Shown: positions 3,371 to 30,787, numbered from the stretch's first letter. The stretch is 64,000 nt of DNA from a virus (IMGVR_UViG_3300003086_000114:33073-97072); one strand, 5' to 3'. The notes: generated by a model from the letters alone, not told the origin. A program made the numbers and translations.

Positions 3371-3380
3371 GGATAAATAT

Positions 3381-5131: not shown

Positions 5132-5335
5132 ATGAGAGTTATTGAGATTATCGAAGGTGTTGGTATAATTACTAAACAGAATCAAACAAGTGATGTAGGA
5201 CCAAATCAAACCAAAATCGAAGCCGCAAAGTTTGGTCTTAAAGTAGACAAAGGTGGGAACCCACCGTTACTGCACAAGACAGCGGCTAAAAATTCAAATC
5301 CAAACAAACTCGATAATGTAGGAATTGGCAAATAA
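5132..5335 (+). CDS. Small protein with capsid-targeting-like leader (MRVIEIIE)
   Basis: ORF track; leader matches the shared motif. Confidence 0.6.
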   Translation: MRVIEIIEGVGIITKQNQTSDVGPNQTKIEAAKFGLKVDKGGNPPLLHKTAAKNSNPNKLDNVGIGK

Positions 5336-5345
5336 CACTAATAAT

Positions 5346-6419
5346 ATGTTAGTGCCACTACCAGTTAGCGGCACATTACATGAATTCAGGGACAACGGTT
5401 ATCCAGGATACGAATGGATTAATAAGCTACCCAATAAAAACATATACCTAGCATTATTTCAACGTTGGCCCGAACAGGATTTGCCGTCAGACCATGATAT
5501 TTACATAGTTAGTTTTCACTTAGAGCCTGTTGATATAGAATGGCTTACGAAACAAAGTAAGATTACTAACGGTGAAATACTTGTGCTATTTGATGGGACA
5601 AGTAATAACTACACAATTCCTAGGGTAAGATTTTTATCATATTACTATTGGCACATACAACTAGATAGAATGTTAGAGTGGTTTGGGTGTGACGATAAAC
5701 CTAAAATTATAACACACAAAGCAAGCGCATTTTGCAATAGGATTACCACTACTAAATTAATTACATTTACAGCACTACTAGAGTATTTCGGAACTGATGA
5801 TTGTATGCTCGTGCTCCATGATTGGTTAGAAAATAAAAACATATTACAGGAAGATGAGTACGCTCCACCTCTAGTAAAAGAGTTATTTAATATCTTTTTT
5901 AGTAAGTATTATGGCAATGAATATAAAATTGATAATTTTAATAATGACTTGAATTATCAACAACATACTGCAAATCCTTGGCAGCCAGCATACCAAAATT
6001 GTGCGTTACATTTTACTAACGAAAGCTTTAATATTAGCGATCTACGCAGTCCAGCATTGTATTCACACCCTGGTCCGTTTATAACAGAAAAGACATTGAA
6101 GTGCTTACTAGGTAGGACGGCATTTGTACCAGTTGGTCAATATGATACTTATGGTGCGTTAAGAAGATTAGGGTTACAATTTGATTATAACTTTGATACT
6201 TCTTTTGATAGCATAATACCTGATCAAGATAGATTGATCGCTACTATAGAATTAATAAAAAATCTAGTTGACATGTCCTCGGAAGAGATTTATAACGGTA
6301 CTAGGGAATCTTGTGATTTTAATTTTAATTATATCACTGGTGGAAGATTCTATATAGACTGCGAACAACTAAATCAACACACTGTAGATCAAATCTTTGA
6401 GCATATCAGTTTAGCATAA
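5346..6419 (+). CDS. Glycosyltransferase-like protein (GT10-like E..TEK motif family)
   Basis: NESF...FITEKTLK...LRRLG.QFDYNFDTSFD; paralogous to 22782-24035, 31159-32148 and 61602-62579. ATG 5346 preferred over TTG 5325. Confidence 0.55.
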   Translation: MLVPLPVSGTLHEFRDNGYPGYEWINKLPNKNIYLALFQRWPEQDLPSDHDIYIVSFHLEPVDIEWLTKQSKITNGEILVLFDGTSNNYTIPRVRFLSYYYWHIQLDRMLEWFGCDDKPKIITHKASAFCNRITTTKLITFTALLEYFGTDDCMLVLHDWLENKNILQEDEYAPPLVKELFNIFFSKYYGNEYKIDNFNNDLNYQQHTANPWQPAYQNCALHFTNESFNISDLRSPALYSHPGPFITEKTLKCLLGRTAFVPVGQYDTYGALRRLGLQFDYNFDTSFDSIIPDQDRLIATIELIKNLVDMSSEEIYNGTRESCDFNFNYITGGRFYIDCEQLNQHTVDQIFEHISLA

Positions 6420-6422
6420 ATA
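6415..6422 (+). promoter_or_regulatory. Late-promoter-like CATAAATA heading the 6450-16410 gene run
   Basis: TAAATA core in the only intergenic gap ahead of a tightly coupled operon. Confidence 0.55.
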
Positions 6423-6449
6423 TGCTAAACATGTACTTAAAGGTCAAAA

Positions 6450-6878
6450 ATGAGATTAAGTGAAATAATAGTTAACGAAGATGATCTAAAGATTCCAAAG
6501 ATAAGCGATGATTTTCGAGTTGATCATACTGTAAAGAATCCAGAACCTAGAATCAATCATGTAGCTTTCCAAGGAAATACACTAGCTAATAAAGCAATTA
6601 CTCCGGACACTTCAAACCAGTTCAACAAGTCTAACCAGTTCAACAAGTTCAACAAGTACAACAAGTTCAACAAGTTCAACTGGAGACATGCAATGCCAAA
6701 AACAACTGAAGAAATAGCAGATTATAAGAACTTTGTTCGTAACAATCGCAACGCAATAAAGAATTCAATTAAAGATAACGTACCATATTCGGAGTATTTT
6801 TTACCTGTATTAGGGGCATGGAACGACTACAGTAAAGGAAAGTCTGTAGATTTATTTAAATGGAAAATGCCATTCTAA
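6450..6878 (+). CDS. Hypothetical protein with leader MRLSEIIVNE and internal (NKF)n repeat
   Basis: ORF track; leader motif; NQFNKSNQFNKFNKYNKFNKFN. Confidence 0.6.
   Translation: MRLSEIIVNEDDLKIPKISDDFRVDHTVKNPEPRINHVAFQGNTLANKAITPDTSNQFNKSNQFNKFNKYNKFNKFNWRHAMPKTTEEIADYKNFVRNNRNAIKNSIKDNVPYSEYFLPVLGAWNDYSKGKSVDLFKWKMPF
6615..6680 (+). repeat. Imperfect 9-bp coding tandem repeat (AACAAGTTC)n
   Basis: aaccagttc aacaagtct aaccagttc aacaagttc aacaagtac aacaagttc aacaagttc aac. Confidence 0.85.
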
Positions 6879-6890
6879 AGAGAGAACATA

Positions 6891-7505
6891 ATGAGAATAA
6901 GTGAACTAATAACTAAAGAAGATCTACTAACCGATAAGGACGATCGCTTCAAACATATGGTTGATAGGATTAGCGATAAAGCGGGTAAAGAACTTAGCCA
7001 GCCAAGATCAAAAATAGTATGCAAGCCTGTTAGGAGGACTGATAATACTCGTAAGCGTAAAGGTCGTTTTCTCGAAGGGCTTGAACGACAAATATCTCAA
7101 CAAGATGTAGATCAACTAGATAGGTTTGCAGACAAGGTATTTGCTAGAGTTGGCATTGATGTTAAATTCACTAGGAATTTCTTACAACGTGTAAACGACG
7201 ATAGAAACGGCAAACAAATTACCATGTCTGAATTAACTAAACTCTTTAAACAAGAAGCTAATAAGCATGGTAAGCCAATTGCTAGGTTAGGTCCGGATAC
7301 AGAAGCAGTACTAAGTGATATGCAGACTGATATTAATGCTCCATTTGTTTTGCAGTACGATAGAGAAAACGATGAACTTGACTTAGTTGTTAAGACTATA
7401 ATTCGTAACCCAGACTTTGAAACTAGCGACCAAGTATTTGCAGTTGAGCGCAAGCTATCTAAAAGCGAAAAGGAGAGCGCAACTAACATGGCGAAGAAAA
7501 AATGA
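6891..7505 (+). CDS. Hypothetical protein with leader MRISELITKE; C-terminal domain possibly RelE/BECR-like
   Basis: VKFTRNFLQRVNDDRN...LVVKTIIR pattern; the fold call is tentative. Confidence 0.5.
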   Translation: MRISELITKEDLLTDKDDRFKHMVDRISDKAGKELSQPRSKIVCKPVRRTDNTRKRKGRFLEGLERQISQQDVDQLDRFADKVFARVGIDVKFTRNFLQRVNDDRNGKQITMSELTKLFKQEANKHGKPIARLGPDTEAVLSDMQTDINAPFVLQYDRENDELDLVVKTIIRNPDFETSDQVFAVERKLSKSEKESATNMAKKK

Positions 7506-8635
7506 AATTTAATGAATTTAAATTAAACGAAAAACACGGTGAAGGTGGTACTCTACCTAGGCTAAGCGATGATCCTAGTGGATGGCTAGATTATGTCAGT
7601 GACATGGGTCCAGGTGGTCTTAGTGACGCAATGGATAACACTAACTATGATAAACGAACAGAAAAGGATAGAAGATCAGGCACAGCATATACTCCTGAAC
7701 TAGCACCTGAACAGCCATTAAAGTTTACAAAACCAGGTCCAAATATAACAACATCTAGTGAAAAGCCTCCCGAAAGTGATAGTGAGATTGGTGCACAAAT
7801 ACATAAAATAATAAACGGACATAGTATACACGGGTGGAATGTTGATGCGTCGGATGCAGACAGAGCGAAGTTGAAACAAAGCATAGAACAGTTAGCTAAG
7901 GATTATGGTGTAAATCCTAGAGCTCTTACAGGCAACCAAGATAGCTGGATAAAGATGGTAGGAGGGTTCGATGATGACACAACTACAGATGCTCGACACT
8001 CTATGATATTTGATAAAGATAAACCATACGGATCTCATATACAATTTAAAGACCCAGAAAGATCTTTACCACACGAGTTTGCACATCATGCTAGTATGAA
8101 TTTTGCCGCAGTAGATGATAAAGGTGGCATGAGAATTGCAGATCCTGATAACATAGCGCATAAGTCAGAGAACACTTTTATTACAGGATTTGGTGGTGAG
8201 GATGCGGAAGACAAGTATCTATCTATGGCAGAGAGATACAGAGATGCTGAAGGAAACTTAGATAAAAAAGGTCTTAGAGGCGCATTATATAAAAACGTAT
8301 TTGATAGAGAAACTAACAAACAACGTCCAGAACTAAAGCACGCATTGGCTACTGCTGTATCATACATATTATCAGATTCAACCTTATTAACAAATGCAGA
8401 TGAGACTAGTTTTAAAATAGGGTACCAATATGATCCTGAAGAACTATGGGCAAGAGGATTTGCTGAGTTCAGTAGATTAAAACGACTGCCAGTTGAAGAA
8501 AGATTTGATGGTGATACTATTATAAGACCTGAAACTTATATTAAAATACAAAAGCTAATGAACAACATTAAAGTTGTAAACCGCAATACAATGGCTAAAG
8601 GTAAAGGCAGAGATACAGGAACAAGAACGGCATGA
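7502..8635 (+). CDS. Zincin-like (HExxH) metallopeptidase-domain protein with leader MKFNEFKLNE
   Basis: LPHEFAHH and distal PEELWARGFAE; tandem paralogue of the next gene. Confidence 0.65.
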   Translation: MKFNEFKLNEKHGEGGTLPRLSDDPSGWLDYVSDMGPGGLSDAMDNTNYDKRTEKDRRSGTAYTPELAPEQPLKFTKPGPNITTSSEKPPESDSEIGAQIHKIINGHSIHGWNVDASDADRAKLKQSIEQLAKDYGVNPRALTGNQDSWIKMVGGFDDDTTTDARHSMIFDKDKPYGSHIQFKDPERSLPHEFAHHASMNFAAVDDKGGMRIADPDNIAHKSENTFITGFGGEDAEDKYLSMAERYRDAEGNLDKKGLRGALYKNVFDRETNKQRPELKHALATAVSYILSDSTLLTNADETSFKIGYQYDPEELWARGFAEFSRLKRLPVEERFDGDTIIRPETYIKIQKLMNNIKVVNRNTMAKGKGRDTGTRTA

Positions 8636-9702
8636 GATATAATGAGTTTAAGTTAACCGAAACACATACATCAGGTGCACCGATGCCTGCTGATAATGAT
8701 ATTGAGGCATGGGGAGAATACTTCGCAGATCTAGGTGCTAGTACTAGCAGTGGTGTTAAAAGAGTATTGCCTAAACCTGAAGGAACATATACTAAATCTC
8801 CAGAACCAAAAAAGCCATCAAAGTATACAACGCCAGGAAAAAATATAGGATCCTATGCAGACTGGGGTATTACTGGGTACGCAGATGCGCATGGCTGGAA
8901 TGTAGACGGTGGAGAAGAAGAGGCGAAAAAGATCAAAACAAGCATAGGCAAAGTAGCTAAAGACTACGGTGTTGAGCCAAGAGCGTTTACAGCTAACCAA
9001 CAAGGAAGTATGAAATTGTCTAAAAATCAATCGGACCACCGGGTAGGTGCCGGACAAAGCATGACTTATGCAAAGCATAATCCTTATATGTCTGCTGTAG
9101 ATTTAACAGATCTAGAGAAACACATGTCACATGAACTAGCACATCACAATAGTATGAATTTTGCCGCGGTAGATGCAGAAGGTGGCATGAGAATTGCAGA
9201 TCCTGATAACATAGCGCATAAGTCAGAACACAATTATATCACAGGATTCGGCTTAGAAGATGCAGAAGGTAAGTATCTAACAATGGCAAACAAGTACATT
9301 AGCGATGATGGTACGTTAGATGAAAAAGGATTTAGACAAGAACTATACAAAAACGTGTTTGGCAGAAAAACGAATAAACAACGTCCAGAACTAAAGCATG
9401 CGTTAGCTACTACTGTATCGTATATATTAACAGATAAGAGCTTACTTAAACACGCAAGTGATAATACATGGCTTAAAGATGAAGCTGATTATCAATATGA
9501 TCCTGAAGAACTATGGGCAAGGGGATTCGCTGAATTCAGTAGAATGAAACGTCTAGACCCAAAAGAACGATTCAGAGATAAAGATATAATTACACCAGAG
9601 ACTTATAATAAAATACAAAAAATGATGGACACTATTAAAGTCAAGCACGGCAACGTAATGACTAAAGGTAGAGGAAGAGACACAGGAACAAGAACGTCAT
9701 GA
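8632..9702 (+). CDS. Zincin-like (HExxH) metallopeptidase-domain protein with leader MRYNEFKLTE
   Basis: MSHELAHH and PEELWARGFAE; long near-identical blocks shared with 7502-8635. Confidence 0.65.
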   Translation: MRYNEFKLTETHTSGAPMPADNDIEAWGEYFADLGASTSSGVKRVLPKPEGTYTKSPEPKKPSKYTTPGKNIGSYADWGITGYADAHGWNVDGGEEEAKKIKTSIGKVAKDYGVEPRAFTANQQGSMKLSKNQSDHRVGAGQSMTYAKHNPYMSAVDLTDLEKHMSHELAHHNSMNFAAVDAEGGMRIADPDNIAHKSEHNYITGFGLEDAEGKYLTMANKYISDDGTLDEKGFRQELYKNVFGRKTNKQRPELKHALATTVSYILTDKSLLKHASDNTWLKDEADYQYDPEELWARGFAEFSRMKRLDPKERFRDKDIITPETYNKIQKMMDTIKVKHGNVMTKGRGRDTGTRTS

Positions 9703-11111
9703 GGCTAAGGGAATTCATATTACTAGAGTATAAAAGAGATAAGACTGCTCAGAACCTCGGTCATAAGTTAGTAGTTAGGCTACGAGACGATATGTCTTTT
9801 ATAAGAATACATCAGTACAACCAGCCAGAATTAGCGGATTACTATAATAGTAAACGACGCAATGCGGCAAACGTGCCTCAAGACCCAACAGAAAATCCAG
9901 CACTAGTGTCAAAAATAGTTAATGATGCATTAAGTGGATTAGAAGAAATAGACCCTAGTCCAAATAAACAATACGTACAATGGTTAGCCTTACGCTACTT
10001 AGATGGCACATTTAGACTATGGGAAGATGCAATAGGCGGGCATATTGTTGAAGTACTTCAACAGTTCCACGAATTGAAGCAACGCCAACAGCTACCCCCA
10101 GAACTAGCCGATATCAATAGAGTCAAAGGACGTGACAAGTTGGGACTCTTTGCATCAGATGTTAGAGATTTGTACGACGACTTCAAAAAAGCAAAAGGCG
10201 AAGATGAAGAAAAAGCACAATTAGCTAAAGGCGATGCTAACGAAGTCTTTAGTGACGGACACGTTAGAGTAATTGTTCCAGAAGATAAACAAGCGGCTTG
10301 CTATTACGGACAAGGCACACAGTGGTGTACAGCGGCAACGCAAGGTGCTAACTACTTTGGTGAATACAACCATGACGGCAATTTGTACATACTACTTCCG
10401 ACTAAGCCACAATACGATGGTGAGAAGTATCAACTGCATTTTGCTAGTGGACAATACATGGATGAAACAGACACTCCACAAGATCTCCATAGCATATTAG
10501 ACGGTCGTTTTCGTGACTCGGGATTACTTGAGTTCTTCCGTAAAAAAGAACCAACAGTAAACAATCTTATACAGTTTGCTCCAGAAGGACTGCTAATGGA
10601 TGTAATTCAAAAAATTAATGAGTACGTGAAGTATGAGGTAGTAGGTGAAATGGTATCAAGATGGGAGGCGGACGATGATTACTTTTACACTTGGTTAACG
10701 GACGAAGGATATGTAACCGATGACGAAGTGTCAGATGATGCACCAAGCTATGCAGAATACAACGATGAAGTAGGCGACTTTGAAGCAACAATTCAAAACT
10801 TAGTTGACTTAAACAAAGATGAGTTAGATGACATAAGTGCAGAATATACTGCAGAAACGGAATCAACAACAGTAATAAAAGATATTGCTGAACTCATTGC
10901 ATGGCACCTAAAAGATGAAGCTGGAAGGTACGAGTTTGACAGTGCAATTGAAAGTGTAGCTGAAGATATAGAGAAACACCTTGTAGTAAAAGTACAATGG
11001 GGTGGCGACGGTCAACCATCAGGGTTCCAACTAATATACGGATGGATGACTATAGAAGACGGCAGAAACAAATGGAACGAGCGAGTTCACGCTGAGAAGA
11101 GTTACACATGA
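9699..11111 (+). CDS. GTQWCTA-motif (PcfJ-related) protein with leader MRLREFILLE
   Basis: DPSPNKQYVQW and AACYYGQGTQWCTA...EKYQLHF; paralogue of 15019-16410. Confidence 0.6.
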   Translation: MRLREFILLEYKRDKTAQNLGHKLVVRLRDDMSFIRIHQYNQPELADYYNSKRRNAANVPQDPTENPALVSKIVNDALSGLEEIDPSPNKQYVQWLALRYLDGTFRLWEDAIGGHIVEVLQQFHELKQRQQLPPELADINRVKGRDKLGLFASDVRDLYDDFKKAKGEDEEKAQLAKGDANEVFSDGHVRVIVPEDKQAACYYGQGTQWCTAATQGANYFGEYNHDGNLYILLPTKPQYDGEKYQLHFASGQYMDETDTPQDLHSILDGRFRDSGLLEFFRKKEPTVNNLIQFAPEGLLMDVIQKINEYVKYEVVGEMVSRWEADDDYFYTWLTDEGYVTDDEVSDDAPSYAEYNDEVGDFEATIQNLVDLNKDELDDISAEYTAETESTTVIKDIAELIAWHLKDEAGRYEFDSAIESVAEDIEKHLVVKVQWGGDGQPSGFQLIYGWMTIEDGRNKWNERVHAEKSYT

Positions 11112-11344
11112 GACTAGAAGAAGTAAATTATAAAACTGGAATAGCACTACTTGAAGAGTTTGTACAATCAAGTTGGATTGCAGATCTTACGTACGACGAA
11201 GATATGGGATCTGTTATAATGACAACATTAGGCGGTGGGAGTTATGAAATTCCTGACGTGCCAAAAGAAGAATACGACGCATGGATAGCCGCTGGCAGTA
11301 AAGGAAAGCATTGGTGGAGCGACATAAAAGGAATTTACACATGA
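11108..11344 (+). CDS. KTSC domain protein with leader MRLEEV...LLEE
   Basis: SSWIADLTYD...GGSYEIPDVPKEEYDAWIAAGSKGKHW matches the KTSC pattern (SS.I..i.Yd...G..Y.Y..VP...y..l..A.S.G). Confidence 0.8.
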   Translation: MRLEEVNYKTGIALLEEFVQSSWIADLTYDEDMGSVIMTTLGGGSYEIPDVPKEEYDAWIAAGSKGKHWWSDIKGIYT

Positions 11345-14300
11345 ATCTTACAGAACGATTAAACAAAGAACTAAACAAATTATCAAACGTATTAGTAGAA
11401 ACTAGAACTCCTAACCAAATACTACTTGAGTTAAACGTAATTAACGCAGATGCTATTGATGTATTCTTAAATAGTATTGCTGAAAACTTACCAAGTGACG
11501 CACTAAAGAAGTGGCTTACATCAAGAGCTAAAAAGTACTTAATTAACAGTGAAGAAGATAATTCAGTTATTACACAGTTTAGTAATAAAGCTGAGCCGTG
11601 GATGAAAGCTAGACAGAAAGAAGGTGTAGCACTATACAGATTCAATCCAAGTACAACACTAAACAATAAACTTACACACATTGTAGATTGGCTAAAGGCC
11701 GCAAATGATACAGCAACCGGTATAACACCAGCAGACCAACAGTCAGTTACACGTGCAAAGAAAACACTCAAAGGTATAAACAACGTATCTATTACACAAG
11801 CGTTTGAGCATGCTGAGCTCTGGGTTAAAGAACTTAACTCAAAAGGTAGCAGTGAATTAGTTAGAGCGGCAGATGAAACTGGTCTAGTACCAGTATTAGC
11901 ACATGGTGAATTTAAATGGTACAGACTAACGGACCAAGAATGCTTATCCCGTGAAGGTGATGTAATGGGTCACTGTGTTGCTAGTTACGGCAATGATGTT
12001 AAAAAAGGCGATACAGTTATATACAGTCTTAGAGATAGACAGAATTATCCACACGTTACATTAGAAGTAAGAAGTGGGCAGTTAGAACAAGTAAAAGGCA
12101 AGCAAAACAGACCACCAGTAGAAAAGTACGAACGTGCTACTATTGAAATGTTGAACTCATTAGATGTAGAACCAAATAGAACTGGTATGAGCGACATTAA
12201 AGGTATGAACCTGTTGTACAATTCTGCCAATCACAGATATGGACATTTAAGAGATGTAGCAACTGCTATAACTACCATTGACGGTAAACTTAACATATTA
12301 GCAAATAGCGGATCAGGTCCTAGAAGTGGCACATCATACTACGGCTACGTTGGAGATAACGAAGTCTTTAGTATAGACTGGGACGGTTATGAGTACGAAC
12401 TTGGAACTAAGAACGAACCAGGTATTGCTGAAGTTAATATTGAAGGTGCAAAATACGCAGACAATCAGTACAAAATAGCAAAAGTAATTTCAATGCTGTC
12501 TACACAGCTAATGGATCCCGATACTGGAGAATTTGCGAATTGGAGTAGATATAATGCAGGTCGTCAAGGGTTAGGTGATTACCTTATATCATCTGAGAAT
12601 AATGATAGTCTTATTATGTACGAAGACCAAGGTGAAGAACTGTATGATGATCGTTCTGGCAATACACTACGAAAAGGCAGTAACATAACAACTAAAAGTT
12701 CATGGAGTTCAGATACCGGACCTATGATCATACATATAAAGAACGGTAAGTTAAAAGATAAAGTAAGTTACATTGAAGAAAATGGCAAGGAAATATGGAA
12801 AGCAGGTAGCTATTCAATAAGTGATGATTCATCAACAGTATTCGTTAACTACATTAATTCATTAAACCCAGACGCTAGACCTTACCTTGCTGATTATGGT
12901 ATCTACCAAAATGTAGACAATCGCTCAGCATCAGAAACAATTTCAAAGGTAGCGAAACCGTTAGCAAAGTCTAGAAAGGTTGCACTGTATCATACAACAA
13001 GTCCTAGTATATATAGCACTCCAGAGCAAACAAAACGTTATGTTGTAGCACTAGAAAATCAACAACTCATCAACATAAATTACGGTGATGATGCTAGCGC
13101 CGGTACTGACTTTAGACTTGATTGGCCAGATGAACAAACTGTTACAGATGTCGCCAAGCATATAGTAACTGTTCTCAATAAGGTGAACTTAGGTGAGAAA
13201 TTCCCGTTCAATGATGCAGGTAAGGTATCAGCAATGGAATCTGTAGGTATTTACTTCAGTAGAGATAAACGAATATTCACTACAGACCATAGTGTAGCTG
13301 GTGAGCACTACGAACACGAAGACAAGAACTTTACTGCAATCAGAACGCACAACCATTTAAAAATATATAACGAAGGTATTGAGCTTGCACAGTTTGGACT
13401 ACAAACAGCTTACAGAGACGGCAAGACAATAGCAACAATTACAGAGTTCACAGTTAAAGATCGTTTACAGTTACTAAATAATCTAAGGAAAGTAGCTGAC
13501 ACATTAAACAGCTATAACGTACTAAGAGATAAAGACGGGTACGGATCACAAGAAAGAGCGAACAAGGCAATGACTGCTATTGGCTTTAAGTATGGTCCCG
13601 CAAAAGGTTGGACTGGTATGAAGACTTCGCCAACATCAGAATCAACCGGCGAAGCTGAAGGTACACCATACGAAGTCTTTAAGTTCAGAAAAGAATACTT
13701 ACTTAAGAATTCAGAAACAGGTAATTTAATAGCTACCCTGCCAACAGTTAAAGAAAGCGGATACGACAAAGATGTACTCTATAATATCGAAATGGAGTCA
13801 ATTAAAGGCAGTGCAATTGATATAGTTGCTCAAGTCATAATGGACTTATCAGAAAAAGGTGAGATACACCTAAGACTAAACGATGACGAAGAAGACTTAA
13901 AGTTCAAAATGAAAGACAAAGGCTTCTTCGTGTCAGGCGGAAAATTAGAAAAGATATCAGACGTACATCCAACTAGTGTTGTGTCAAAAGGACCAGGTGG
14001 TACCTGGGTAGAAGAAGCATATACTACAGCAGTAGATGAAAAGATACATAACATGCAGGAGAAAGCTGACACCGGCGGATACACAACACGAGATCAGAAC
14101 CCTGTGAGCAAGTACCATAGAGGCAGAATGGCCGCAACAGGCGAGCAGTACACGCTATATAACAATAAAAAACCAGTTTTAAGAGTTATAGCAAGAAATC
14201 AAGATATTCAAATAATCTACAGCATCAATAATAGTACAGCCAAGTACGATAAAGAGAGTGTAGCTGTTGGTGTCGAAACTAACAGAGATTTATTAATGTC

Positions 14301-14682: not shown

Positions 14683-15029
14683 GATTTAGAGAACTACTAA
14701 CAGAATCAACTGAAATAGAGTTCGTCTGTGCTAACCCAGATTATTGCGATGCTACTTCTCCCAAAAGACAACGTAGTCTATTTAAAGCATTAAAAAGTGT
14801 TCCTGGAGTAGTTGTATATAAACAAGACTTTGGTGCTGGAGAAGTTAGCATGGCAGTAATACTAAAATCGTCTGCTAATAAACACACAGTAAACCAAATA
14901 AACCAAATAGCATCAGACAACGGTGTTGCAATTGACCTTACATCTGCTGTAAGTGATATGTTCGTCGACAGTATATATACTGGTGATTTAGAAAATTTAG
15001 CAGATTGGTACGATAGCGATGAGATTTAG
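14679..15029 (+). CDS. Hypothetical protein with leader MRFRELLTE
   Basis: ORF track; ATGA overlap; leader motif. Confidence 0.65.
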   Translation: MRFRELLTESTEIEFVCANPDYCDATSPKRQRSLFKALKSVPGVVVYKQDFGAGEVSMAVILKSSANKHTVNQINQIASDNGVAIDLTSAVSDMFVDSIYTGDLENLADWYDSDEI

Positions 15030-16410: not shown

Positions 16411-16442
16411 TAGCAATAAACAGTTATGATTGATTGCACTCG

Positions 16443-16449
16443 ATAAATA
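16443..16449 (+). promoter_or_regulatory. Late-promoter-like ATAAATA
   Basis: Lies 7 nt before ATG 16457, with no Shine-Dalgarno in between. Confidence 0.5.
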
Positions 16450-16456
16450 ATTTTAT

Positions 16457-19246: not shown

Positions 19247-19263
19247 ACTAGAGGACACTGCTT

Positions 19264-19791: not shown

Positions 19792-19793
19792 AT

Positions 19794-19837
19794 ATGTTAG
19801 TAAAATCATTATAATTGTGTAATGATTTTACTAACAT
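19794..19837. repeat. Perfect 18-bp inverted repeat (8-nt spacer) between paralogous oxygenase genes
   Basis: ATGTTAGTAAAATCATTA-taattgtg-TAATGATTTTACTAACAT. Confidence 0.85.
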
Positions 19838-19860
19838 TTTGAAACTAACACAGGAACATT

Positions 19861-20388: not shown

Positions 20389-20391
20389 ACT

Positions 20392-22756: not shown

Positions 22757-22781
22757 CCCTTGCAAGTAAGACTCGAAGAAA

Positions 22782-24035
22782 TTAATTAATTAGATTGCTA
22801 TATTTTTTCAATATAGCATCACCCACTTGTTTAGATTTACTATAAGCATATTCTAAAGCCTGTTTATGGCTTCCACATCTTCGAGGCTTAATTCCAAACT
22901 TATTGAGATAGATATTATCGTAATAAAATAACGTTCCACCGGGCATTGTGTAAAACTGTTCTTCTCTTAGTGCTAGTGCTTCTTCAAGGTTATTATGCAA
23001 CTCGTTTTTTAATATTTTATAAAACTTGTCACTATAAAAATGTTTTCTGTTAAATTCTACAATTTTAGTTGTCTGTTGTATTAATTTCTTGTATTCAGTT
23101 GGGTTTAAGTTATTTAAATAACTGATCAAATCAGTTATTTTTTTAAATCTTGCATCTGTATCTTCTTCGTAGTCGTAGCTTTCATCCCATATATGGTCAA
23201 ATGTCTTAAAACCGTAACTTTTTAAGTACTTAATAGAATGTGGTCCGCCAAATAAAATAAACGGCTGTTGCATAACAATAGGTTTAAATATTTTCTCAGT
23301 TAAATGTACTTTTTCTGTATCGAACATAGTCTCTGGAACAATGTGTATATCAAATTTGCTCTGGTCTTTCCACTCTATTGTTGCACTTAAATCACTTGAT
23401 AACTCAATATTGTGTTTATCTAAAATCGGACAATACACATCTATATTTGAATTTTTTAACAGTTGCAGTATATCTTTTCTGTATTTGCGTGTACCGCTAA
23501 CACCTCTTATATAACACCCGAATTTATTTTTATTACTGTTGTTTACAGGTGATAGCATTTCATACATGCTATACCAGTATCTGCTTAAAAACGCATTAGA
23601 CCAAAAATGAAACGGTATATGAAAGTTGTCCGAAACCCAAGATACATCCTTGCTGTTAATTTCACTTACAGCAATTATTGGGGTATATATACCCCTACTC
23701 CTAAACAAAAAGAATTCGTTGTTTGGTAAGTCGATGTGCTTACTAGCAATGGCATTATCATTGGTTAAATGTTCTTTAGTAACTTCACAGTACGCATGTA
23801 TATCCAACGGCTCTTGATCAAACATAACTAGTGTTCCGTTTGACTCGCGTTCTGTAATAAGTTCGGGTTGAGATGAATCTGATTGCATATTTTCTGGAAA
23901 ATATGGAGTTGTTGCATGAACTAAGTCATGTAGGTTTTTGGACCCTAAATCGGTAAAATGTAAAACCTCTACGTTTTTTTTGTTGATGTAGCAGTAATAG
24001 CGTAGGTAGTCGTATAATTGATTAGGGGAAAGCAT
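22782..24035 (-). CDS. Glycosyltransferase-like protein (GT10-like ET..TEK family)
   Basis: IVPETMF...HLTEKIFKPIVMQQPF...GFKTFDHIWDESYD. Likely start is ATG 24035 (MLSPNQ), downstream of a minus-strand GTAAATA at 24061-24067. Confidence 0.6.
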   Translation of the reverse strand: MLSPNQLYDYLRYYCYINKKNVEVLHFTDLGSKNLHDLVHATTPYFPENMQSDSSQPELITERESNGTLVMFDQEPLDIHAYCEVTKEHLTNDNAIASKHIDLPNNEFFLFRSRGIYTPIIAVSEINSKDVSWVSDNFHIPFHFWSNAFLSRYWYSMYEMLSPVNNSNKNKFGCYIRGVSGTRKYRKDILQLLKNSNIDVYCPILDKHNIELSSDLSATIEWKDQSKFDIHIVPETMFDTEKVHLTEKIFKPIVMQQPFILFGGPHSIKYLKSYGFKTFDHIWDESYDYEEDTDARFKKITDLISYLNNLNPTEYKKLIQQTTKIVEFNRKHFYSDKFYKILKNELHNNLEEALALREEQFYTMPGGTLFYYDNIYLNKFGIKPRRCGSHKQALEYAYSKSKQVGDAILKKYSNLIN

Positions 24036-24159
24036 ATAATGAATAAAAATATTAGTATGATATTTACCCGAGGGAGTTAAACATAGTAAATGTTTGTGAA
24101 GTAGCACACCAACTAGCAAAGGCGAAAAGTTAATAGAAGTGTGCTAATACAAAACCAGC

Positions 24160-24166
24160 ATAAATA
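24160..24166 (+). promoter_or_regulatory. Late-promoter-like ATAAATA
   Basis: Intergenic, upstream of the 24195 gene. Confidence 0.55.
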
Positions 24167-24194
24167 CTGATAATAAAAATATTTGGATTATGCA

Positions 24195-27100
24195 ATGAAG
24201 CCTGTACTTATACCTGACATCGTTTACACTGATTTACGTGAAACTCTAAACAAACTAGACAACGTACTAGTAGAGAAACAAACAAAGTTCTCTTTTAAGA
24301 CACTTAATCGTTGGGGTCCATGGGCATCTGATGTTGCTGATTACATGACTAATCAATTAGATGTTAGTCAAGGTGTTCCGAGCGACGTACAAACATTCGT
24401 AAAGCAGTCAACGTTTAGTGATGAGAAGAAACAGCAGATACTAAATGATCCGTACTACGCCAGGAACCTAGCTCAAGTCGCTAGTGCAGTAAACAGAGGC
24501 GACATGGCACCTTTAGGCAATACAGGGCCACAACATTCAGGTGGTACTAGTTTTGGTGGCGGTTCTGGTGTAGGGTTTGAAGGATTATCTAAAGAATTAA
24601 AAAAACTACAAGACATAGTAAAGCGAAAGAAGAGTTCTGATGAAGGCGGTACTAAGGCGTTTTATACACCGTTACCTCCAGAAGATTTAGAATGGGTGTT
24701 ACACGGTCAACCTGCTGATCCAATTCCCCAGACAGGTTCAGTAACTGATAAAGTTGATCCAACATGGGACGGGCAAACAGCAGATGAACTTAGGGCAGAA
24801 TTAGATAAGTCTTACGGCGGCCGTGAAAATTGGGAAGGAACAAAAGAATTTGAATCTCCAGAGACAGAACCTAGCGAATATGTACCATCGGACAAAGACG
24901 ACTATAAAAGTTCGTATGAAGCAGAACTAGGACTTGATACTGGCGAACTTACTACTAGACCTTCTCCGCAAGCTAGAGCAGACGACGAGTCAGATACTAG
25001 AAGCGACTACGAAAAAGAACTAGATAGAAGAGTTAAACAGCAACTTAAAAAGTCTCCAGAAGAGGAGTTCGCTAGATGGTTAAAGCGTTTTGCTTTCACA
25101 GACGATGAAACATTCGCTGACTACGACGAAGAGTTTATTAGATCAAGTTTCGGCGATCAAGCCGCAGAGGCATTTTTAGCATCGCAACAAGAGAGAGAAT
25201 CATTTATAGATACCGAAGTAGATACTGCTCCAGAGACAGAAGTAGATACTGCTCCAGAGACAGAAGTAGATACTGCTCCAGAGACAGAAGTAGATACTGC
25301 TCCAGAGACTGAGGTCGATGATGAGTACTCATTAGGTGATAGTGAAGATTATTCACTTGACACGTGGAAAAAACTGTTCAAGTTCATGGATGCAGATCAT
25401 TTTGCTAATTTTGATGAAGACTTTCTCAGGGCAAACTATAGTGACACAGCCGCTGATGCATTCTTAGCTACTGAAAGACCTATCCCAGATCCAGTTCCAG
25501 ATCCAGAGCCTTCAACTGAAGATATCGCTTCATGGAAAAAACATTACACTGATATGGATCCTGAGGATCTTGAGACAATTACCCCTGAAGATGCTAAAGC
25601 TTACGGACCTGCATCAGTTAAGGCATACGTAGATGCTAAATTAGAAAAGGTACAAAAAACAAAAGACGTAGCAGATGCTTATACGGACGCCGATACACAA
25701 GATACTGATGATAACGTTGTAACCCAAGATCCACCTGAATCAGAATACTATGAATGGTTAAAGCGTTTTGCTAATACAGATGACGAAACATTCAATAGCT
25801 TTGATACAGATTTTATTAGATCAAATTTTGGCGATCAAGCCGTAGAGGCATTTGAAGTTGCACAACAAGAGAGAGAATCATCCACAGAGCCAGAGGTTGA
25901 TTTAACACCAGAGCCTGAAGTAGAAGTAGAGCCTGAAGTAGAAGTAGATACTAACGATGAAAGATTTGCAAAATGGAAAAAACGCTTTGCCGATACAGAC
26001 GATGAAACATTTTCTGAGTATGATGTAGAATTTATTAAATCAAACTTTGGCTCCGATGCGGCACAAGCATTTTTAGCATCGCAACAAGAGAGAGCAGGAA
26101 TTGTAGAGCCTGAAGTAGATACTAGCGATGCAGATCTAAACAGAATAAGGGACCTAGCTGGAGTACTAACTCCAGAGCCACAAGCTAAAGCAGATGAGTT
26201 TGAGACTGCACCAGTATTAACAACAGAATTGCCAGACTTCAGCACAATGACGCAGGAAGAATTCGTAGCTTGGGAAGACAAAGCAATGGACAACTTCATT
26301 GACAATTGGGAGTCAAATCCTAGGTACGCTGGCATGTCAGAAGAAGAAGCAAATGATCAGTTCAATAGTGATTTAGTAAACTTTGAAGAAAGAGTAGGTA
26401 AAAAAGAACCACAAGCTAAAGCAGACGACACTGATATAGACGCAGACATAGACGATCTAAATACAGCAATAGATGACTTAGATAAAACACAATCTATAAC
26501 AACTGATCCGTACGACACTTCAAACTTCGGACACATGACACAAGAAGAATTTGATAGGTGGGAAGAAAGTTTCATAGACGCAGAACTTGATAAAATGTAT
26601 GATAATGATGGTAACCAAGTAATAAGCGATGAAGATTTTGATGCTAATTTAGATACTAACACAACTAAACTCTACCAGCAGTACCAAAAAGCTCGTGAAG
26701 AACAACCAGAAGTCGATGCACAAAAAGTATTTACTGATGCTAACGTAGATCAACAAATGCAAATGCCAGGTGAAAGTACGGCAGACTTCTTAACACGAAC
26801 AACCAAGATTGATGCAGATAACAGAGCTAAACAAGCACAACAAAAAATAGACGATCAGGCAGTACTCGATGCATTAGAAAAAGCAGGCAGAAGTAGTAAA
26901 GCAAAAGGCGTGTTTAGAAAACCTATGGCAAAAGATGATACTCCTGTTAATAAAACGTATACATCAGCTAAACCAGAAACTGATGTCAGTAGAGCAATCG
27001 ACACCATATCAGATGCTATTCCAGATAGTGTTAAAGATACAGCAGGCGATGTCTGGGCTGATGTAAAAGGTTACTTCCAAGGTAGTGAAGCAGATAAAGA

Positions 27101-27689
27101 TCTCGGTACAGCCAAAGATGCAATTGGAGATGCATACGATTATGTTACAGGTGATGAGCTTGGTAACGATGCTTCAAGATTAAAGAAATACATACTGAGT
27201 ACACAATCACGTAAAGATGCTCAAGCCAAAGGTGAAGAGCATAGAGGGGCAATAGATAAGAAGGTTACTGATACTAAAACAGGTATAACTGACTACTTTA
27301 CCAAAGGTGGACTTACCGGTGACTTAGGTGATGCGGCTGATTGGATTGGTGATGCGTATACTAAACAAATGGACCACATTGATAAACAATTTAAATACGC
27401 AGATAAAGTAAACAAAGAAAGAGAAGAGTTTTTAGCTAAAAGCAAAGCAACGTTCGCAAGAGAAAAAGCGGCAAGTCAACCTAAAAAAGATGCAGAAGCT
27501 AAGAGAAGAGCTGAAATCGAAGCTCAAGATCCTAGAGGATTTTGGGAGAAAACCAAATCTGGTTGGGATAAAGGCTTTAGAGATGCGGCTAGACAAAAAG
27601 CAGAAAGAGAAGCTATATATAAGAAACAACGTGAAGGCCAGCCTAAAAAACCAGAGAATCCAAGTTGGTTCGATAGCTTATGGGACTAG
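24195..27689 (+). CDS. Very acidic repeat-rich ~1164-aa protein, putative internal/ejected virion protein
   Basis: Five ~45-aa W-K-K/R-F helical repeats, (EVDTAPET)x4, PQAKAD motifs and an amphipathic/basic C-terminus. ATG 24195 preferred over TTG 24183. Confidence 0.6.
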   Translation: MKPVLIPDIVYTDLRETLNKLDNVLVEKQTKFSFKTLNRWGPWASDVADYMTNQLDVSQGVPSDVQTFVKQSTFSDEKKQQILNDPYYARNLAQVASAVNRGDMAPLGNTGPQHSGGTSFGGGSGVGFEGLSKELKKLQDIVKRKKSSDEGGTKAFYTPLPPEDLEWVLHGQPADPIPQTGSVTDKVDPTWDGQTADELRAELDKSYGGRENWEGTKEFESPETEPSEYVPSDKDDYKSSYEAELGLDTGELTTRPSPQARADDESDTRSDYEKELDRRVKQQLKKSPEEEFARWLKRFAFTDDETFADYDEEFIRSSFGDQAAEAFLASQQERESFIDTEVDTAPETEVDTAPETEVDTAPETEVDTAPETEVDDEYSLGDSEDYSLDTWKKLFKFMDADHFANFDEDFLRANYSDTAADAFLATERPIPDPVPDPEPSTEDIASWKKHYTDMDPEDLETITPEDAKAYGPASVKAYVDAKLEKVQKTKDVADAYTDADTQDTDDNVVTQDPPESEYYEWLKRFANTDDETFNSFDTDFIRSNFGDQAVEAFEVAQQERESSTEPEVDLTPEPEVEVEPEVEVDTNDERFAKWKKRFADTDDETFSEYDVEFIKSNFGSDAAQAFLASQQERAGIVEPEVDTSDADLNRIRDLAGVLTPEPQAKADEFETAPVLTTELPDFSTMTQEEFVAWEDKAMDNFIDNWESNPRYAGMSEEEANDQFNSDLVNFEERVGKKEPQAKADDTDIDADIDDLNTAIDDLDKTQSITTDPYDTSNFGHMTQEEFDRWEESFIDAELDKMYDNDGNQVISDEDFDANLDTNTTKLYQQYQKAREEQPEVDAQKVFTDANVDQQMQMPGESTADFLTRTTKIDADNRAKQAQQKIDDQAVLDALEKAGRSSKAKGVFRKPMAKDDTPVNKTYTSAKPETDVSRAIDTISDAIPDSVKDTAGDVWADVKGYFQGSEADKDLGTAKDAIGDAYDYVTGDELGNDASRLKKYILSTQSRKDAQAKGEEHRGAIDKKVTDTKTGITDYFTKGGLTGDLGDAADWIGDAYTKQMDHIDKQFKYADKVNKEREEFLAKSKATFAREKAASQPKKDAEAKRRAEIEAQDPRGFWEKTKSGWDKGFRDAARQKAEREAIYKKQREGQPKKPENPSWFDSLWD
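25215..25310 (+). repeat. 24-bp coding tandem repeat x4 (EVDTAPET)
   Basis: GAAGTAGATACTGCTCCAGAGACA three times plus a fourth copy ending GAGACT. Confidence 0.9.
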
Positions 27690-27690
27690 T

Positions 27691-28023
27691 ATGAAGATAA
27701 CTGAAATAACAGACAAGAGCAGATTAGACGAATTTGGTCCATTACTTAATGTACCTCTGGGAGTGCAAGTATTAGCTAGTAGACTTGCTCCTTATGTTCC
27801 TGGTGCATTAGCTGTTGCACACGGAGCACTAAAGTTTGGTCATCCAGCTCTTGGTACTGCAGGCGTGACAGCTAACACTGTGGGAAATACTATTGATAGT
27901 ATTGATACTGCAACTGATACTGCGGCTAGCTACTTTGATGACGAAGGTAGACAAGCAGTGGCTAAAGCAACTGATGATGATATTCCGCAGTTAGATCCCG
28001 AAATAGATATACCGAGTGAGTAA
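27691..28023 (+). CDS. Protein with leader MKITEITDKSRLDE followed by a hydrophobic/amphipathic segment
   Basis: True start is ATG 27691, immediately after the upstream stop; the track start 27490 overlaps the previous gene. Confidence 0.7.
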   Translation: MKITEITDKSRLDEFGPLLNVPLGVQVLASRLAPYVPGALAVAHGALKFGHPALGTAGVTANTVGNTIDSIDTATDTAASYFDDEGRQAVAKATDDDIPQLDPEIDIPSE

Positions 28024-28052
28024 AAGTAACTTTTTCTACGGTAAATAGTAGA

Positions 28053-28355
28053 ATGAGTACTAAATTTGTAAAAATATTATTTGATTTGCACTGTAATTGG
28101 GAAGGTATTCCTCCTGACTATAGAGTATATTTAAATGATGAGTTATTTACAGAAAGAACATATAGATTTGAAGATCCAGTCTACTTAACAGAAATACTAC
28201 AAGTACAAGCTAAACCAGGAACATATAGATTTAAGCTAGAGAAGGTAGGTCCGCAAATAAGTAAATTCAGTATATCAAATACTAGAGTAGAATACGGACC
28301 AGGTGAGATAGTAGATAAACATACATTTAAAATATTAGAAGAAGATGAGAGCTAA
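28053..28355 (+). CDS. Hypothetical beta-rich protein (PPDYRVYLNDELFTERT)
   Basis: ORF track; GTAAATA at 28041-28047 lies 5 nt upstream. Confidence 0.65.
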   Translation: MSTKFVKILFDLHCNWEGIPPDYRVYLNDELFTERTYRFEDPVYLTEILQVQAKPGTYRFKLEKVGPQISKFSISNTRVEYGPGEIVDKHTFKILEEDES

Positions 28356-28932
28356 CGAATTTATAACCGAAAACCCATTCATAACCAGGGGTTCGCCGTA
28401 CCTAAAAGATATACCGCATATAACTGACAAGATATCTCAGTTCTTTCAAACGTATACAGAGCTCGATTACGATGGCATACGTAATAACTTAGGCATTGAC
28501 GGTAATCGCAGGCCACTAGCAAAAGCAGATGGCGATGATATTCCAATAATAGATTTTGATGATGATGACGGCCGCGACGAAGATTTTGATTGGGATGATG
28601 ATATTCCGCAGTTAGATCCCGAAGTTAGTAGTATACCGATTGATAAGAGTAAAGAAAAAGTAGTATTGCCTATAATATCTAATCCATATGGGTTTCCCGC
28701 TAAAAATGAAAATAAATTACGTGAATTTGATTCTAAACTATTCTACAATAATTTATACAATAATATATTAAATAATTGGGATTCTATGCGGCGCGATGAT
28801 TGGGATGTCTTTAAGAATCGCAAGTCTGAAAAGAAACCAGAGAAAACAGAGAACCCAGAGAAAACAGAGAACCCAGAGAAACCAATTAAACACGATGAAT
28901 GGAACTTGCCTAAAGGTCAAGCATCTGTGTAG
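28345..28932 (+). CDS. Hypothetical protein with leader MRANEFITE, acidic centre and PEKTEN repeats
   Basis: ORF track; leader motif. Confidence 0.6.
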   Translation: MRANEFITENPFITRGSPYLKDIPHITDKISQFFQTYTELDYDGIRNNLGIDGNRRPLAKADGDDIPIIDFDDDDGRDEDFDWDDDIPQLDPEVSSIPIDKSKEKVVLPIISNPYGFPAKNENKLREFDSKLFYNNLYNNILNNWDSMRRDDWDVFKNRKSEKKPEKTENPEKTENPEKPIKHDEWNLPKGQASV

Positions 28933-28945
28933 AGGAGAAATTAAT

Positions 28946-29164
28946 ATGCGTTTACATGAATTTTTAAACTTAGAAGAAGAAGTTAAATGGTGGAACCCCA
29001 CTACATGGCTTGACGAACCAAAGTTTAATCCTGACATTACTCCTATGAAAAAAGGATATAAAAAGATGAAAAAGAAAATGTCAACAGACCCTGAATACGC
29101 GAAGAAAATTCTGTCTGGCAATAAGATTAAAAAATCCACACGTTTAGACGATATCATAACATAG
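28946..29164 (+). CDS. Small basic protein with leader MRLHEFLNLEEE
   Basis: ATG 28946 preceded by GAGGAG; the track start 28796 overlaps the previous gene. Confidence 0.65.
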   Translation: MRLHEFLNLEEEVKWWNPTTWLDEPKFNPDITPMKKGYKKMKKKMSTDPEYAKKILSGNKIKKSTRLDDIIT

Positions 29165-29172
29165 GTGAACTA

Positions 29173-29481
29173 ATGAAAATAAATGAAATAACAGATAACA
29201 ACCGGCTAGATGAAGCTTTGCCTGCATTACCATTAGTTTTAGGCACGGTGGCGGCTGGAGTTGCTAAGAATGCTCCGCGCATTGTAAGAGCAGTTAAGAA
29301 CATGTTTAAAAAAGCACCCGATTCAGCGAAGAAAAAAGGCATTACTAAAGGCGACAGCAGAGTAGATATTAATAGAAAATCAAGTACAGAATTTGATTCT
29401 TTACCGTTACCAAAGAAAGTAACTGGCAACGTATACGGTGATCCTAAAATTAATAAATGGAAAAATGACATTTTCTATTAA
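29173..29481 (+). CDS. Basic protein with leader MKINEITDNNRLDE and an amphipathic peptide
   Basis: LDE|ALPALPLVLGTVAAGVAKNAPRIVRAVKNMFKK. Confidence 0.65.
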   Translation: MKINEITDNNRLDEALPALPLVLGTVAAGVAKNAPRIVRAVKNMFKKAPDSAKKKGITKGDSRVDINRKSSTEFDSLPLPKKVTGNVYGDPKINKWKNDIFY

Positions 29482-29505
29482 TAGTAAATTAAAATATCAA
29501 TCAAA

Positions 29506-30243
29506 ATGAGATCACATGAATTCACACAATTAGATGAAGCTTTGCCATTTTTCGCAGGTGCGGCGGCTGCGGCTGCGAAGTACGGACCAAAAGCTTTAAA
29601 AGCTCTTAAAAGCTTTACAAAGAAAAAAGTAGATCCTGCGTCGATTGGGCAAGGCGTGGCTGCCACCGCAACTGGTGTAGGTTTAGCTGGAATGGCAGTT
29701 GATAAGTTATCAAGTGAGAAGACACCAAACGGTATAGATTACGACAAAGCCTACAACGCGTTTAATGCCGCTGAGATGTCAAGTGTTGATGCAGGTAAGG
29801 ACGGCTCAGGACATTACATACGTACACACGGTGCTAAAAAAGGCACGCAAGCATATAAAACAGGTTCAAGCGCATACGGTCCTACACAGTTAAACAAAAC
29901 AACAGCCCAAGACTTCACTACACGATATCCAAAAGCATTTAAAGGGCAAGAGGATTACGCAAAGAAGTACATACATCAAGGTTCGCATTTTAACAAACAT
30001 AAAAGAGGAACTGATTCAAAATATAAGTATGGTGGTAAGGGTGACTTATCAGGGACCGAATACCATGCACCATATAAAAAGTTCAATCAAACTATTATGC
30101 GACAAATGGGCAACGAGCTTAAAAGTAAAAACCCACAATCGGGTATCAAAGACTTAGTACAAAGATGGCGTGGTAAATCAGCCTCTGAAGATCCTAGGTA
30201 CTACGACGAGTTCTTTAATAGATATAATCAACAACAACCTTAG
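29506..30243 (+). CDS. Putative virion lytic transglycosylase (lysozyme-like) with leader MRSHEFTQLDE and amphipathic N-terminus
   Basis: Helix ending AAEMSS (candidate catalytic Glu), then SSAYGPTQLNKTTA, resembling the SLT GAxGLMQLMPxTA motif. Confidence 0.55.
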   Translation: MRSHEFTQLDEALPFFAGAAAAAAKYGPKALKALKSFTKKKVDPASIGQGVAATATGVGLAGMAVDKLSSEKTPNGIDYDKAYNAFNAAEMSSVDAGKDGSGHYIRTHGAKKGTQAYKTGSSAYGPTQLNKTTAQDFTTRYPKAFKGQEDYAKKYIHQGSHFNKHKRGTDSKYKYGGKGDLSGTEYHAPYKKFNQTIMRQMGNELKSKNPQSGIKDLVQRWRGKSASEDPRYYDEFFNRYNQQQP

Positions 30244-30245
30244 TC

Positions 30246-30252
30246 ATAAATA
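30246..30252 (+). promoter_or_regulatory. Late-promoter-like ATAAATA
   Basis: Lies 5 nt before ATG 30258. Confidence 0.6.
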
Positions 30253-30257
30253 CACTT

Positions 30258-30413
30258 ATGAAAGTACGCGAAATAATGGAAACAACATCAGGCGGTATCG
30301 CAACAGTATCAGCGCCATTGGGCGGAACTATTAAGAGGGGCAATCCTAGCATTTACCCTACTGTATCGAAATCTAAGAAAAAGTACGCTAATAGCGTAAA
30401 GGCTAAGAAATGA
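30258..30413 (+). CDS. 51-aa basic protein with leader MKVREIME
   Basis: Translated by hand (MKVREIMETTSGGIATVSAPLGG...KAKK); its stop overlaps the next ATG (ATGA). Confidence 0.7.
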   Translation: MKVREIMETTSGGIATVSAPLGGTIKRGNPSIYPTVSKSKKKYANSVKAKK

Positions 30414-30787
30414 AACTATTTGAATTATTCGAAGACGACAAGGAAAATAGTCAAGACGTAAAAATCCGTGATCCTTTAGCTAGACGCTTAATGGATAAGG
30501 CACGAGCCCAGTATGCGTACACAGACTCAGATATGGAAGCTTTTGTTAAGCTAATGGCTGATGAGCAAGAACGTGATAAGAAAAACATTAACAGCTTAGA
30601 AGATAGCGTCGCCCACGCTGACGAAGTAAACAAACAGCAGTCACGACAACTTGCAATACTAAAACAACAAGAAAAAGAAGATCGTAGATCACTTGATCAA
30701 CATCGTGCTAAAATAGATGCAATCAAAGCAGAAATCGACAGCATAGAAGATAGAACAGACTTGTTATCGTTAAATTCACAATATTAA
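30410..30787 (+). CDS. Coiled-coil protein with leader MKLFELFE
   Basis: ORF track; heptad-like C-terminal half. Confidence 0.65.
   Translation: MKLFELFEDDKENSQDVKIRDPLARRLMDKARAQYAYTDSDMEAFVKLMADEQERDKKNINSLEDSVAHADEVNKQQSRQLAILKQQEKEDRRSLDQHRAKIDAIKAEIDSIEDRTDLLSLNSQY

Follow-up and report, generated by a model that had tools for sequence, protein, structure and literature searches.

The capsid targeting sequence (CTS) of phage T4 internal proteins was reportedly described by Mullaney and Black in 1996 as a segment removed by gp21. It is carried by the internal proteins IPI, IPII and IPIII and by Alt, from which the prohead protease gp21 cuts it off (PMC9026906, PMC5694885, PMC3012670). 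In IPIII, residues 4 and 7 (Y4 and F7) target the protein and residues 8 and 10 direct its processing (PMC9026906). A 2022 review, which describes the T4 internal proteins as small and basic, already proposes the CTS as a general route by which T4-like phages load varied proteins (PMC9026906). In the phiKZ-like phages SPN3US and phiKZ, many head-internal proteins are packaged with the DNA and cut at x-x-E by a T4-related prohead protease, their propeptides being regarded as prohead targeting signals (PMC5694885, PMC10052503). Here we analyse a 64,000-nucleotide (nt) stretch of DNA from an uncultured virus (hereafter the window, from whose first letter positions are counted), comprising bases 33073-97072 of the single 97,072-bp IMG/VR virus record IMGVR_UViG_3300003086_000114 (hereafter the contig). 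Sixteen genes of the window, arranged in two arrays, begin with a common peptide leader, and our analysis indicates that this leader is probably a CTS of the T4 type that is removed by a prohead protease.

Results

Sixteen genes begin with a common leader

A preliminary description of the window had listed sixteen genes with M-[KR]-x-x-E-[FILV] starts, and all sixteen are present at the coordinates given below. The first start of the longest open reading frame (ORF) carries the motif in 13 of them. At 27691 and 28946 the motif lies on the first ATG past the upstream stop, and the sole competitor of ORF 29173 is an antisense ORF, in a part of the window whose genes all lie on the + strand. These three genes are the ones outside the 13 strict matches that a purely mechanical gene calling returned from the 97-kb contig (138 automatically called genes), against 0.73 expected from position-specific residue frequencies (binomial p 8.5e-13). 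The motif is absent from all 607 internal Met residues. As the preliminary description had claimed, no such start occurs at 31-64 kb; the 33 kb upstream of the window are likewise free of them.

The second element of the leader, a downstream [ILV]-x-E, was also borne out. An [ILVMF]-x-E ending at residue 8-17 is found in 15 of the 16 leader genes and in 18 of 125 other genes (Fisher p 2e-10); the exception, 6891, carries T-K-E, and accepting T at P3 raises the count to 16/16. In 14/16 leaders the third residue is hydrophobic or aromatic, and position 6 is F, I, L or V in all 16, giving the consensus M-[KR]-hydrophobic-x-E-hydrophobic followed by [ILV]-x-E, with a length of 8-17 residues. The codons used at the conserved residues differ among genes (AGA/AGG/CGT/AAA, GAA/GAG, TTT/TTC/ATA/CTA), and this synonymous variation indicates that selection acts on the peptide, not on the RNA.

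The genes and boxes of the two arrays are as follows; G001, G002 and G003 are records of related phages, and PA5oct is a Pseudomonas phage.

Array 1
4404-4411, + strand: TATAAATA box (T4 late-promoter consensus), 6 nt before 4417, the first gene of the array; contains the ATAAATA at 4405
4417-5127, + strand: 236-amino-acid protein with the variant leader MNLQELDNYILDD, possible extra cargo; weak nucleotidyltransferase-like match
5132-5335, + strand: leader gene MRVIEIIE, 67 amino acids, predicted mature form basic with an isoelectric point (pI) of 9.7; the G001 orthologue starts MKVSEIINE
5325-6419, + strand: 364-amino-acid gene without leader inside the array, TTG start; conserved in G001 at 37% identity
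6416-6422, + strand: ATAAATA box, 28 nt before 6450
6450-6878, + strand: leader gene MRLSEIIVNE, 142 amino acids, basic; no Pfam or PHROG match
6891-7505, + strand: leader gene MRISELITKE, 204 amino acids, basic; phrog_23027 matches residues 62-182 only
7502-8635, + strand: leader gene MKFNEFKLNE, 377 amino acids; a disordered stretch of about 100 residues leads to a probable zincin-fold domain with HExxH
8632-9702, + strand: leader gene MRYNEFKLTE, 356 amino acids; paralogue of 7502, 51% identity
9699-11111, + strand: leader gene MRLREFILLE, 470 amino acids; large metagenomic family whose PA5oct homologue is a virion protein
11108-11344, + strand: leader gene MRLEEVNYKTGIALLE(E), 78 amino acids; the body is a KTSC domain
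11341-14682, + strand: 1113-amino-acid PcfJ-like protein with a second N-terminal type ending NVLVE, possible large cargo
14679-15029, + strand: leader gene MRFRELLTE, 116 amino acids, acidic
15019-16410, + strand: leader gene MRFRELLE, 463 amino acids; paralogue of 9699

Array 2
24160-24166, + strand: ATAAATA box (CATAAATA), 17 nt before the 24183 ORF, at the head of the array
24195-27689, + strand: 1164-amino-acid protein, N-terminus ending LNKLDNVLVE, possible large cargo of the second leader type
27691-28023, + strand: leader gene MKITEITDKSRLDE, 110 amino acids, from the first ATG past the stop at 27689; paralogue of 29173
28345-28932, + strand: leader gene MRANEFITE, 195 amino acids; the leader MRANEFISE stands on a different, 153-amino-acid protein in G001
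28946-29164, + strand: leader gene MRLHEFLNLEE, 72 amino acids, basic, from the first ATG past the stop at 28932
29173-29481, + strand: leader gene MKINEITDNNRLDE, 102 amino acids, basic, pI 10.0
29506-30243, + strand: leader gene MRSHEFTQLDE, 245 amino acids, basic
30246-30252, + strand: ATAAATA box, 6 nt before 30258
30258-30413, + strand: leader gene MKVREIME, 51 amino acids, basic, pI 10.4; conserved in G001
30410-30787, + strand: leader gene MKLFELFE, 125 amino acids, helical, with weak coiled-coil matches; the G001 homologue starts MNFYELFE

The leader precedes unrelated bodies

Only three pairs of leader genes have paralogous bodies (7502/8632, 9699/15019 and 27691/29173); the other bodies lack similarity at E 1e-3. 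The proteins range from 51 to 470 amino acids and their predicted mature forms from pI 4.2 to 10.4, seven of the bodies being small and basic. The tagged set comprises small basic proteins, the two probable zincins, one protein with a KTSC domain, a widespread 470-amino-acid family and others, and searches of Pfam and PHROGs returned no function for most of the bodies. The varied domains named in the preliminary description were found in part: the zincin assignment (7502/8632) is supported, the KTSC (11108) and basic-peptide assignments stood, the coiled coil of 30410 is represented by weak matches, and no lysozyme-like match was found among the cargo. The PcfJ-like domain lies outside the listed leader genes, in the 1113-amino-acid gene 11341, which has a different N-terminus and no M[KR]xxE; its protein matches Pfam PcfJ PF14284 over residues 185-264 (41.9 bits, cut-off 25).

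The body of 11108 matches Pfam KTSC PF13619 over residues 20-77 (30.9 bits, gathering cut-off 25), and the domain begins 2-3 residues past the predicted cut after E16 or E17 of ...IALLEE. The 7502 protein contains HEFAH at residue 191, with H191, E192 and H195 invariant in 9 homologous sequences. In its AlphaFold2 model, residues 1-106 (the leader plus a linker of about 100 residues) have a predicted local distance difference test score (pLDDT) below 50 and a folded domain follows; the mean pLDDT of the whole model is 64. Every top VIA match of this model is a zincin peptidase, but the scores are modest (M34 lethal factor, Z 8.6; PPEP-2, Z 7.8; PPEP-3, Z 7.5), and its Foldseek matches have E values of 0.03 or worse. 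More distant zincin-like homologues, P0007 and P0008, start MSExRKxRHLxxLLEG instead of MRxxEF and still end in L-L-E.

The 470-amino-acid protein 9699 is modelled at a pLDDT of 90, with residues 1-6 disordered. Its family had no fold match among solved structures (Foldseek E 0.7 or worse; VIA Z 5.7 or lower), and sequence searches of the PDB with 7502 and 9699 gave no match. Its BFVD matches were limited to uncharacterised proteins of phages and giant viruses and weak PcfJ-like entries; an hhalign comparison of the family with the PcfJ-like 1113-amino-acid protein was negative.

Three further array proteins may be additional cargo. Those at 11341 and 24195, both of about 1100 amino acids, have a common N-terminus ending LNKLxNVLVE, and the latter (1164 amino acids) has no significant Pfam family. 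The third, 4417, matches Pfam NTP_transf_2 under the curated cut-off (E 0.0022) and phrog_36119 at E 7.5e-40; it is conserved in G001, G002 and G003, and MNLxE[LI] starts recur in G001.

The first 21 nt of 14679 (14679-14699) and 15019 (15019-15039) are identical (ATGAGATTTAGAGAACTACTA), and the bodies that follow are unrelated. This may reflect recombination or a copy cassette, and it resembles the identical MKTYQEFIAE leaders of two T4 ORFs.

Related phages keep the leader while the cargo changes

The window is part of an uncultured jumbo myophage of the T4 superfamily. The contig is 28% complete according to CheckV, which puts the whole genome at roughly 350 kb, and nearly all of its genes are on the + strand. 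Its DNA polymerase is T4-like, with nearest matches in jumbo myophages of the Atu_ph07, CBB, GAP32 and Vibrio 2.275.O group (44-48% identity). Among seven genomes compared, the uncultured 213-kb record G001 shares the most proteins with the contig (51/134, 49% identity), and PA5oct is the closest cultured phage (23/134 proteins, 42% mean identity). A megablast search of 5-29 kb against phage records gave no match.

Leader-bearing relatives were found through the 470-amino-acid protein. The metagenomic homologues of this family number 589; among the 120 listed, 77 begin with M[KR]xx[ED][FILVM], and Q stands at position 5 in many of the others. As the preliminary description had anticipated, the leader recurs in relatives, with about 15-20 such starts, largely in clusters, in each of G001 and G002. 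The cargo genes common to the contig and its relatives are 4417, 5132, 9699/15019, 11108, 30258 and 30410, and the array genes 5325 and 28053, which carry no leader, are also common. The remaining leader-bearing bodies are unique to each phage, and the cargo set differs among relatives. In combination, these data show a leader that is kept in relatives while the cargo changes.

The relatives also supply the gp21-like protease that had been expected elsewhere, in the form of Peptidase_S77 in G002, PA5oct and G003, in each case next to portal, scaffold and capsid genes. In both G002 and PA5oct the gene run is portal, scaffold, protease (Peptidase_S77), scaffold and capsid, and the capsid N-termini contain several L-x-E sites. 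A small gene between portal and protease itself starts with MKLFEMFD in G002, MKINDIITE in PA5oct and MKLVELFE in Vibrio phage 2.275.O. In the AT-rich jumbo phage G003, which is more distantly related and encodes an S77 protease, three other leaders stand on at least 23 of 172 genes (for example 8183, 25558, 34717, 52746, 9516 and 18395). These leaders, MKxIIRKILKEE, MKIIITENQFKRLxNE and MKNLQEEIxRIxxMMG, all end in [ILM]-x-E.

Leader-bearing proteins are enriched in PA5oct virions

The annotation of PA5oct (Arenbergviridae) includes ten proteins with an M[KR]xx[ED][FILV] start, of which six (EST35_0150, 0205, 0230, 0238, 0380 and 0381) are virion proteins by electrospray ionization tandem mass spectrometry (ESI-MS/MS), compared with 93/461 overall (one-sided Fisher p 0.006). 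One of them, EST35_0205, is the homologue of the 9699 family; it starts MKLFEVFTLYE and is structural by ESI-MS/MS. The Peptidase_S77 protease of this phage is EST35_0152, and the genome also encodes ClpX, ClpA, ClpS, ClpP and chaperonin genes. The published analysis of PA5oct is silent on a leader or N-terminal processing (PMC7318152).

Proposed mechanism and alternative explanations

By analogy with T4, the leader would bind the assembling scaffold core, such that any protein carrying it would be incorporated into the prohead. Cleavage behind the Glu of [ILV]-x-E by a prohead protease of the gp21 type (Peptidase_S77) would then leave the mature body inside the head with the DNA. The preliminary description had proposed such an address-tag system for the loading of many co-injected effectors. 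The T4-like layout, the gp21-type site, the unrelated bodies, the S77 proteases of relatives and the PA5oct virion data speak indirectly, but well, for the tag; that the leader binds the core and is cleaved off in this phage, and that the cargo is ejected into the host and acts as effectors, are steps that we infer.

Several observations weigh against this interpretation. Neither Peptidase_S77 nor Gp23 is present in the 97-kb fragment, which means that the protease is inferred from relatives, and no head module (capsid or scaffold gene) was found in the contig either. Four of the PA5oct motif proteins were undetected in virions, and the mass spectrometry of that phage cannot tell head from tail. 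The leader is one residue shorter than that of T4 before the E-F pair (MRxxEF versus MKTYQEF). Pectobacterium phage CBB and Vibrio phage 2.275.O (Rak2-like), whose DNA polymerases are the nearest among the phages scanned, have the protease but not the leader expansion, and the tag set is therefore lineage-specific. The idea that all Rak2-like phages share the leader system was dropped on the same ground.

If the tagged proteins were scaffold or core blocks like T4 gp22, gp67 and gp68, they would be targeted to the prohead but degraded and expelled at maturation instead of being delivered. In G002, PA5oct and Vibrio 2.275.O, the small gene with a leader that separates portal from protease does occupy the position of T4 genes 67/68, and some bodies are low-complexity or helical. 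However, PA5oct homologues remain in mature virions, the folded enzyme-like bodies (zincin-like, KTSC and the confidently modelled 470-amino-acid family) are not scaffold-like, and the set varies among relatives, unlike core assembly genes; we regard this explanation as unlikely. The persistence of tagged PA5oct proteins as stable virion components also argues against a recognition tag or degron for a phage AAA+ chaperone or protease, as do the near-identical tag of T4, which has no Clp system, and the fit of the [ILV]-x-E ending to S77 protease specificity. Such a role unconnected with the capsid, for which the ClpA/B-like protein near array 1, the GroES- and GroEL-like genes of the contig and the Clp proteins of PA5oct could be cited, is very improbable.

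A signal in the mRNA, such as a translational operator or favoured early codons, would agree with the frequent AAA or AGA at position 2 and with the translational coupling of many leader genes that lack a clear Shine-Dalgarno sequence. It is hard to reconcile with the synonymous and conservative codon variation at every conserved residue, with a second protein-level motif, [ILV]-x-E, at variable distance, and with the retention of the same peptide in homologues at roughly 35-45% identity; other highly coupled genes, moreover, have no leader. We give a translation-initiation feature very little credence. That the similarity stems from chance, or from one much-duplicated family of which only the N-terminus is still recognisable, is almost certainly wrong: three paralogue pairs exist and the 14679 and 15019 leaders have 21 nt in common, but the other bodies lack detectable similarity and differ in length, charge, fold and Pfam family, and the enrichment of the motif has a p value of about 1e-12. 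A CTS-like leader remains the reading that we favour.

Promoter boxes and neighbouring features

The preliminary description had placed TAAATA late-type boxes before the arrays. These are present as ATAAATA, a sequence close to the T4 late promoter, at 4405, 6416, 24160 and 30246. The window has just two copies of the exact TATAAATA where 11.7 ± 3.8 are expected; the octamer is strongly depleted, as though avoided outside functional sites. Across the whole contig there are 14 + strand and 3 - strand copies of ATAAATA, the majority 2-30 nt before gene starts, a placement that fits, rather than proves, late expression. At window positions 3373, 4405, 16443 and 30246, and at contig position 24701 outside the window, the box lies only 2-8 nt before the ATG, leaving no room for a Shine-Dalgarno sequence. 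Late transcription in T4 begins a few bases past the box. If transcription starts here as in T4, the late mRNAs of these genes would be leaderless or nearly so.

A different kind of promoter is found in the left part of the contig, outside the window. At contig positions ~420-470, 11500-11560 and 13400-13455, a near-identical sigma70-type cassette (TTGACA, 17 nt, TATAAT, then TATATTAAATAGCAAAAGGGAAC) precedes several genes, and these cassettes are probably early promoters.

A ClpA/B-type double AAA+ protein is encoded at window 1076-3370, about 1 kb upstream of array 1, and GroES- and GroEL-like genes, judged by their N-terminal sequences only, lie at contig 5387-7327, outside the window. Window positions 22757-24182 form a 1.4-kb interval of low GC (0.33) without a + strand ORF; it holds a 445-amino-acid antisense ORF with a TTG start and no Pfam match, which is perhaps a genuine gene, or else the interval may be non-coding. 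The record is classed as a provirus by IMG/VR; with its T4-like polymerase and jumbo-phage virion protein families, and no integrase noticed, its gene content looks like that of a lytic jumbo phage fragment.

Discussion

The data allow a wider proposal, namely that a large and widespread clade of uncultured T4-related jumbo phages uses leader dialects as a readable capsid-cargo code. We put this forward tentatively, as something quite possible that we would not count on to hold in all its parts together. Under this proposal, the dialects would be lineage-specific, with MRxxEF...LxE in the contig, G001, G002 and PA5oct and the three other leaders in G003, and may co-evolve with scaffold and protease. 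At least 10% of genes would encode packaged, probably injected proteins, including zincin-like and nucleotidyltransferase-like ones, and the set would turn over rapidly, perhaps through recombination at the DNA that encodes the leaders.

Should the tag function as it does in T4, the proteins packaged by an uncultured giant phage could be listed from sequence alone; such a list would point to candidate injected proteins for anti-defence or host takeover, and the leader would be a natural short tag with which foreign proteins could be loaded into the heads of jumbo phages. In PA5oct, which is cultured, the prediction is directly testable. In the literature, we found no prior description of such leaders in the PA5oct-type clade or in jumbo phages other than the phiKZ-like ones.

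The phiKZ-like phages belong to a different lineage from the contig phage, and their propeptides, mostly of 80-130 residues and without a single common short tag, are unlike the leader described here (PMC5694885). PA5oct resembles the contig in having the same leader type on virion proteins together with a Peptidase_S77 protease, but has only about ten such starts in 287 kb.

The T4 CTS is the closest counterpart. A scan of the T4 genome returned ORFs of 100 and 193 amino acids that start MKTYQEFIAE, which we take to be ipII and ipIII, one of 95 amino acids that starts MKTFKEFTS...ITE, presumably ipI, one of 54 amino acids that starts MKTFKEFIKE, and one that starts MELITELFDG, presumably alt. 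In T4 as in the contig, the leader is a short N-terminal propeptide (10-19 residues in T4, 8-17 here) made up of Met, a basic residue, two hydrophobic residues three apart flanking Glu, and an [ILV]-x-E end. In both it is common to otherwise unrelated, often basic proteins whose loci vary among related phages, a pair of genes can carry leader DNA of identical sequence, and the seven small basic bodies resemble the T4 internal proteins. Further T4-like traits are the gp21-family protease of the relatives and the position of the genes after late-type ATAAATA boxes. Unlike T4, the contig has mostly Arg at position 2 of the leader, and its predicted cargo includes larger enzyme-like proteins and long disordered linkers. 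The scale is also larger, in line with the preliminary description: at least 16 tagged genes in about 28% of a genome, compared with about 5 in the whole of T4 by the same scan. The CTS principle is already known from T4; new here are the scale and its probable extension to PA5oct-like and related environmental jumbo phages, with a much larger and rapidly changing cargo repertoire.

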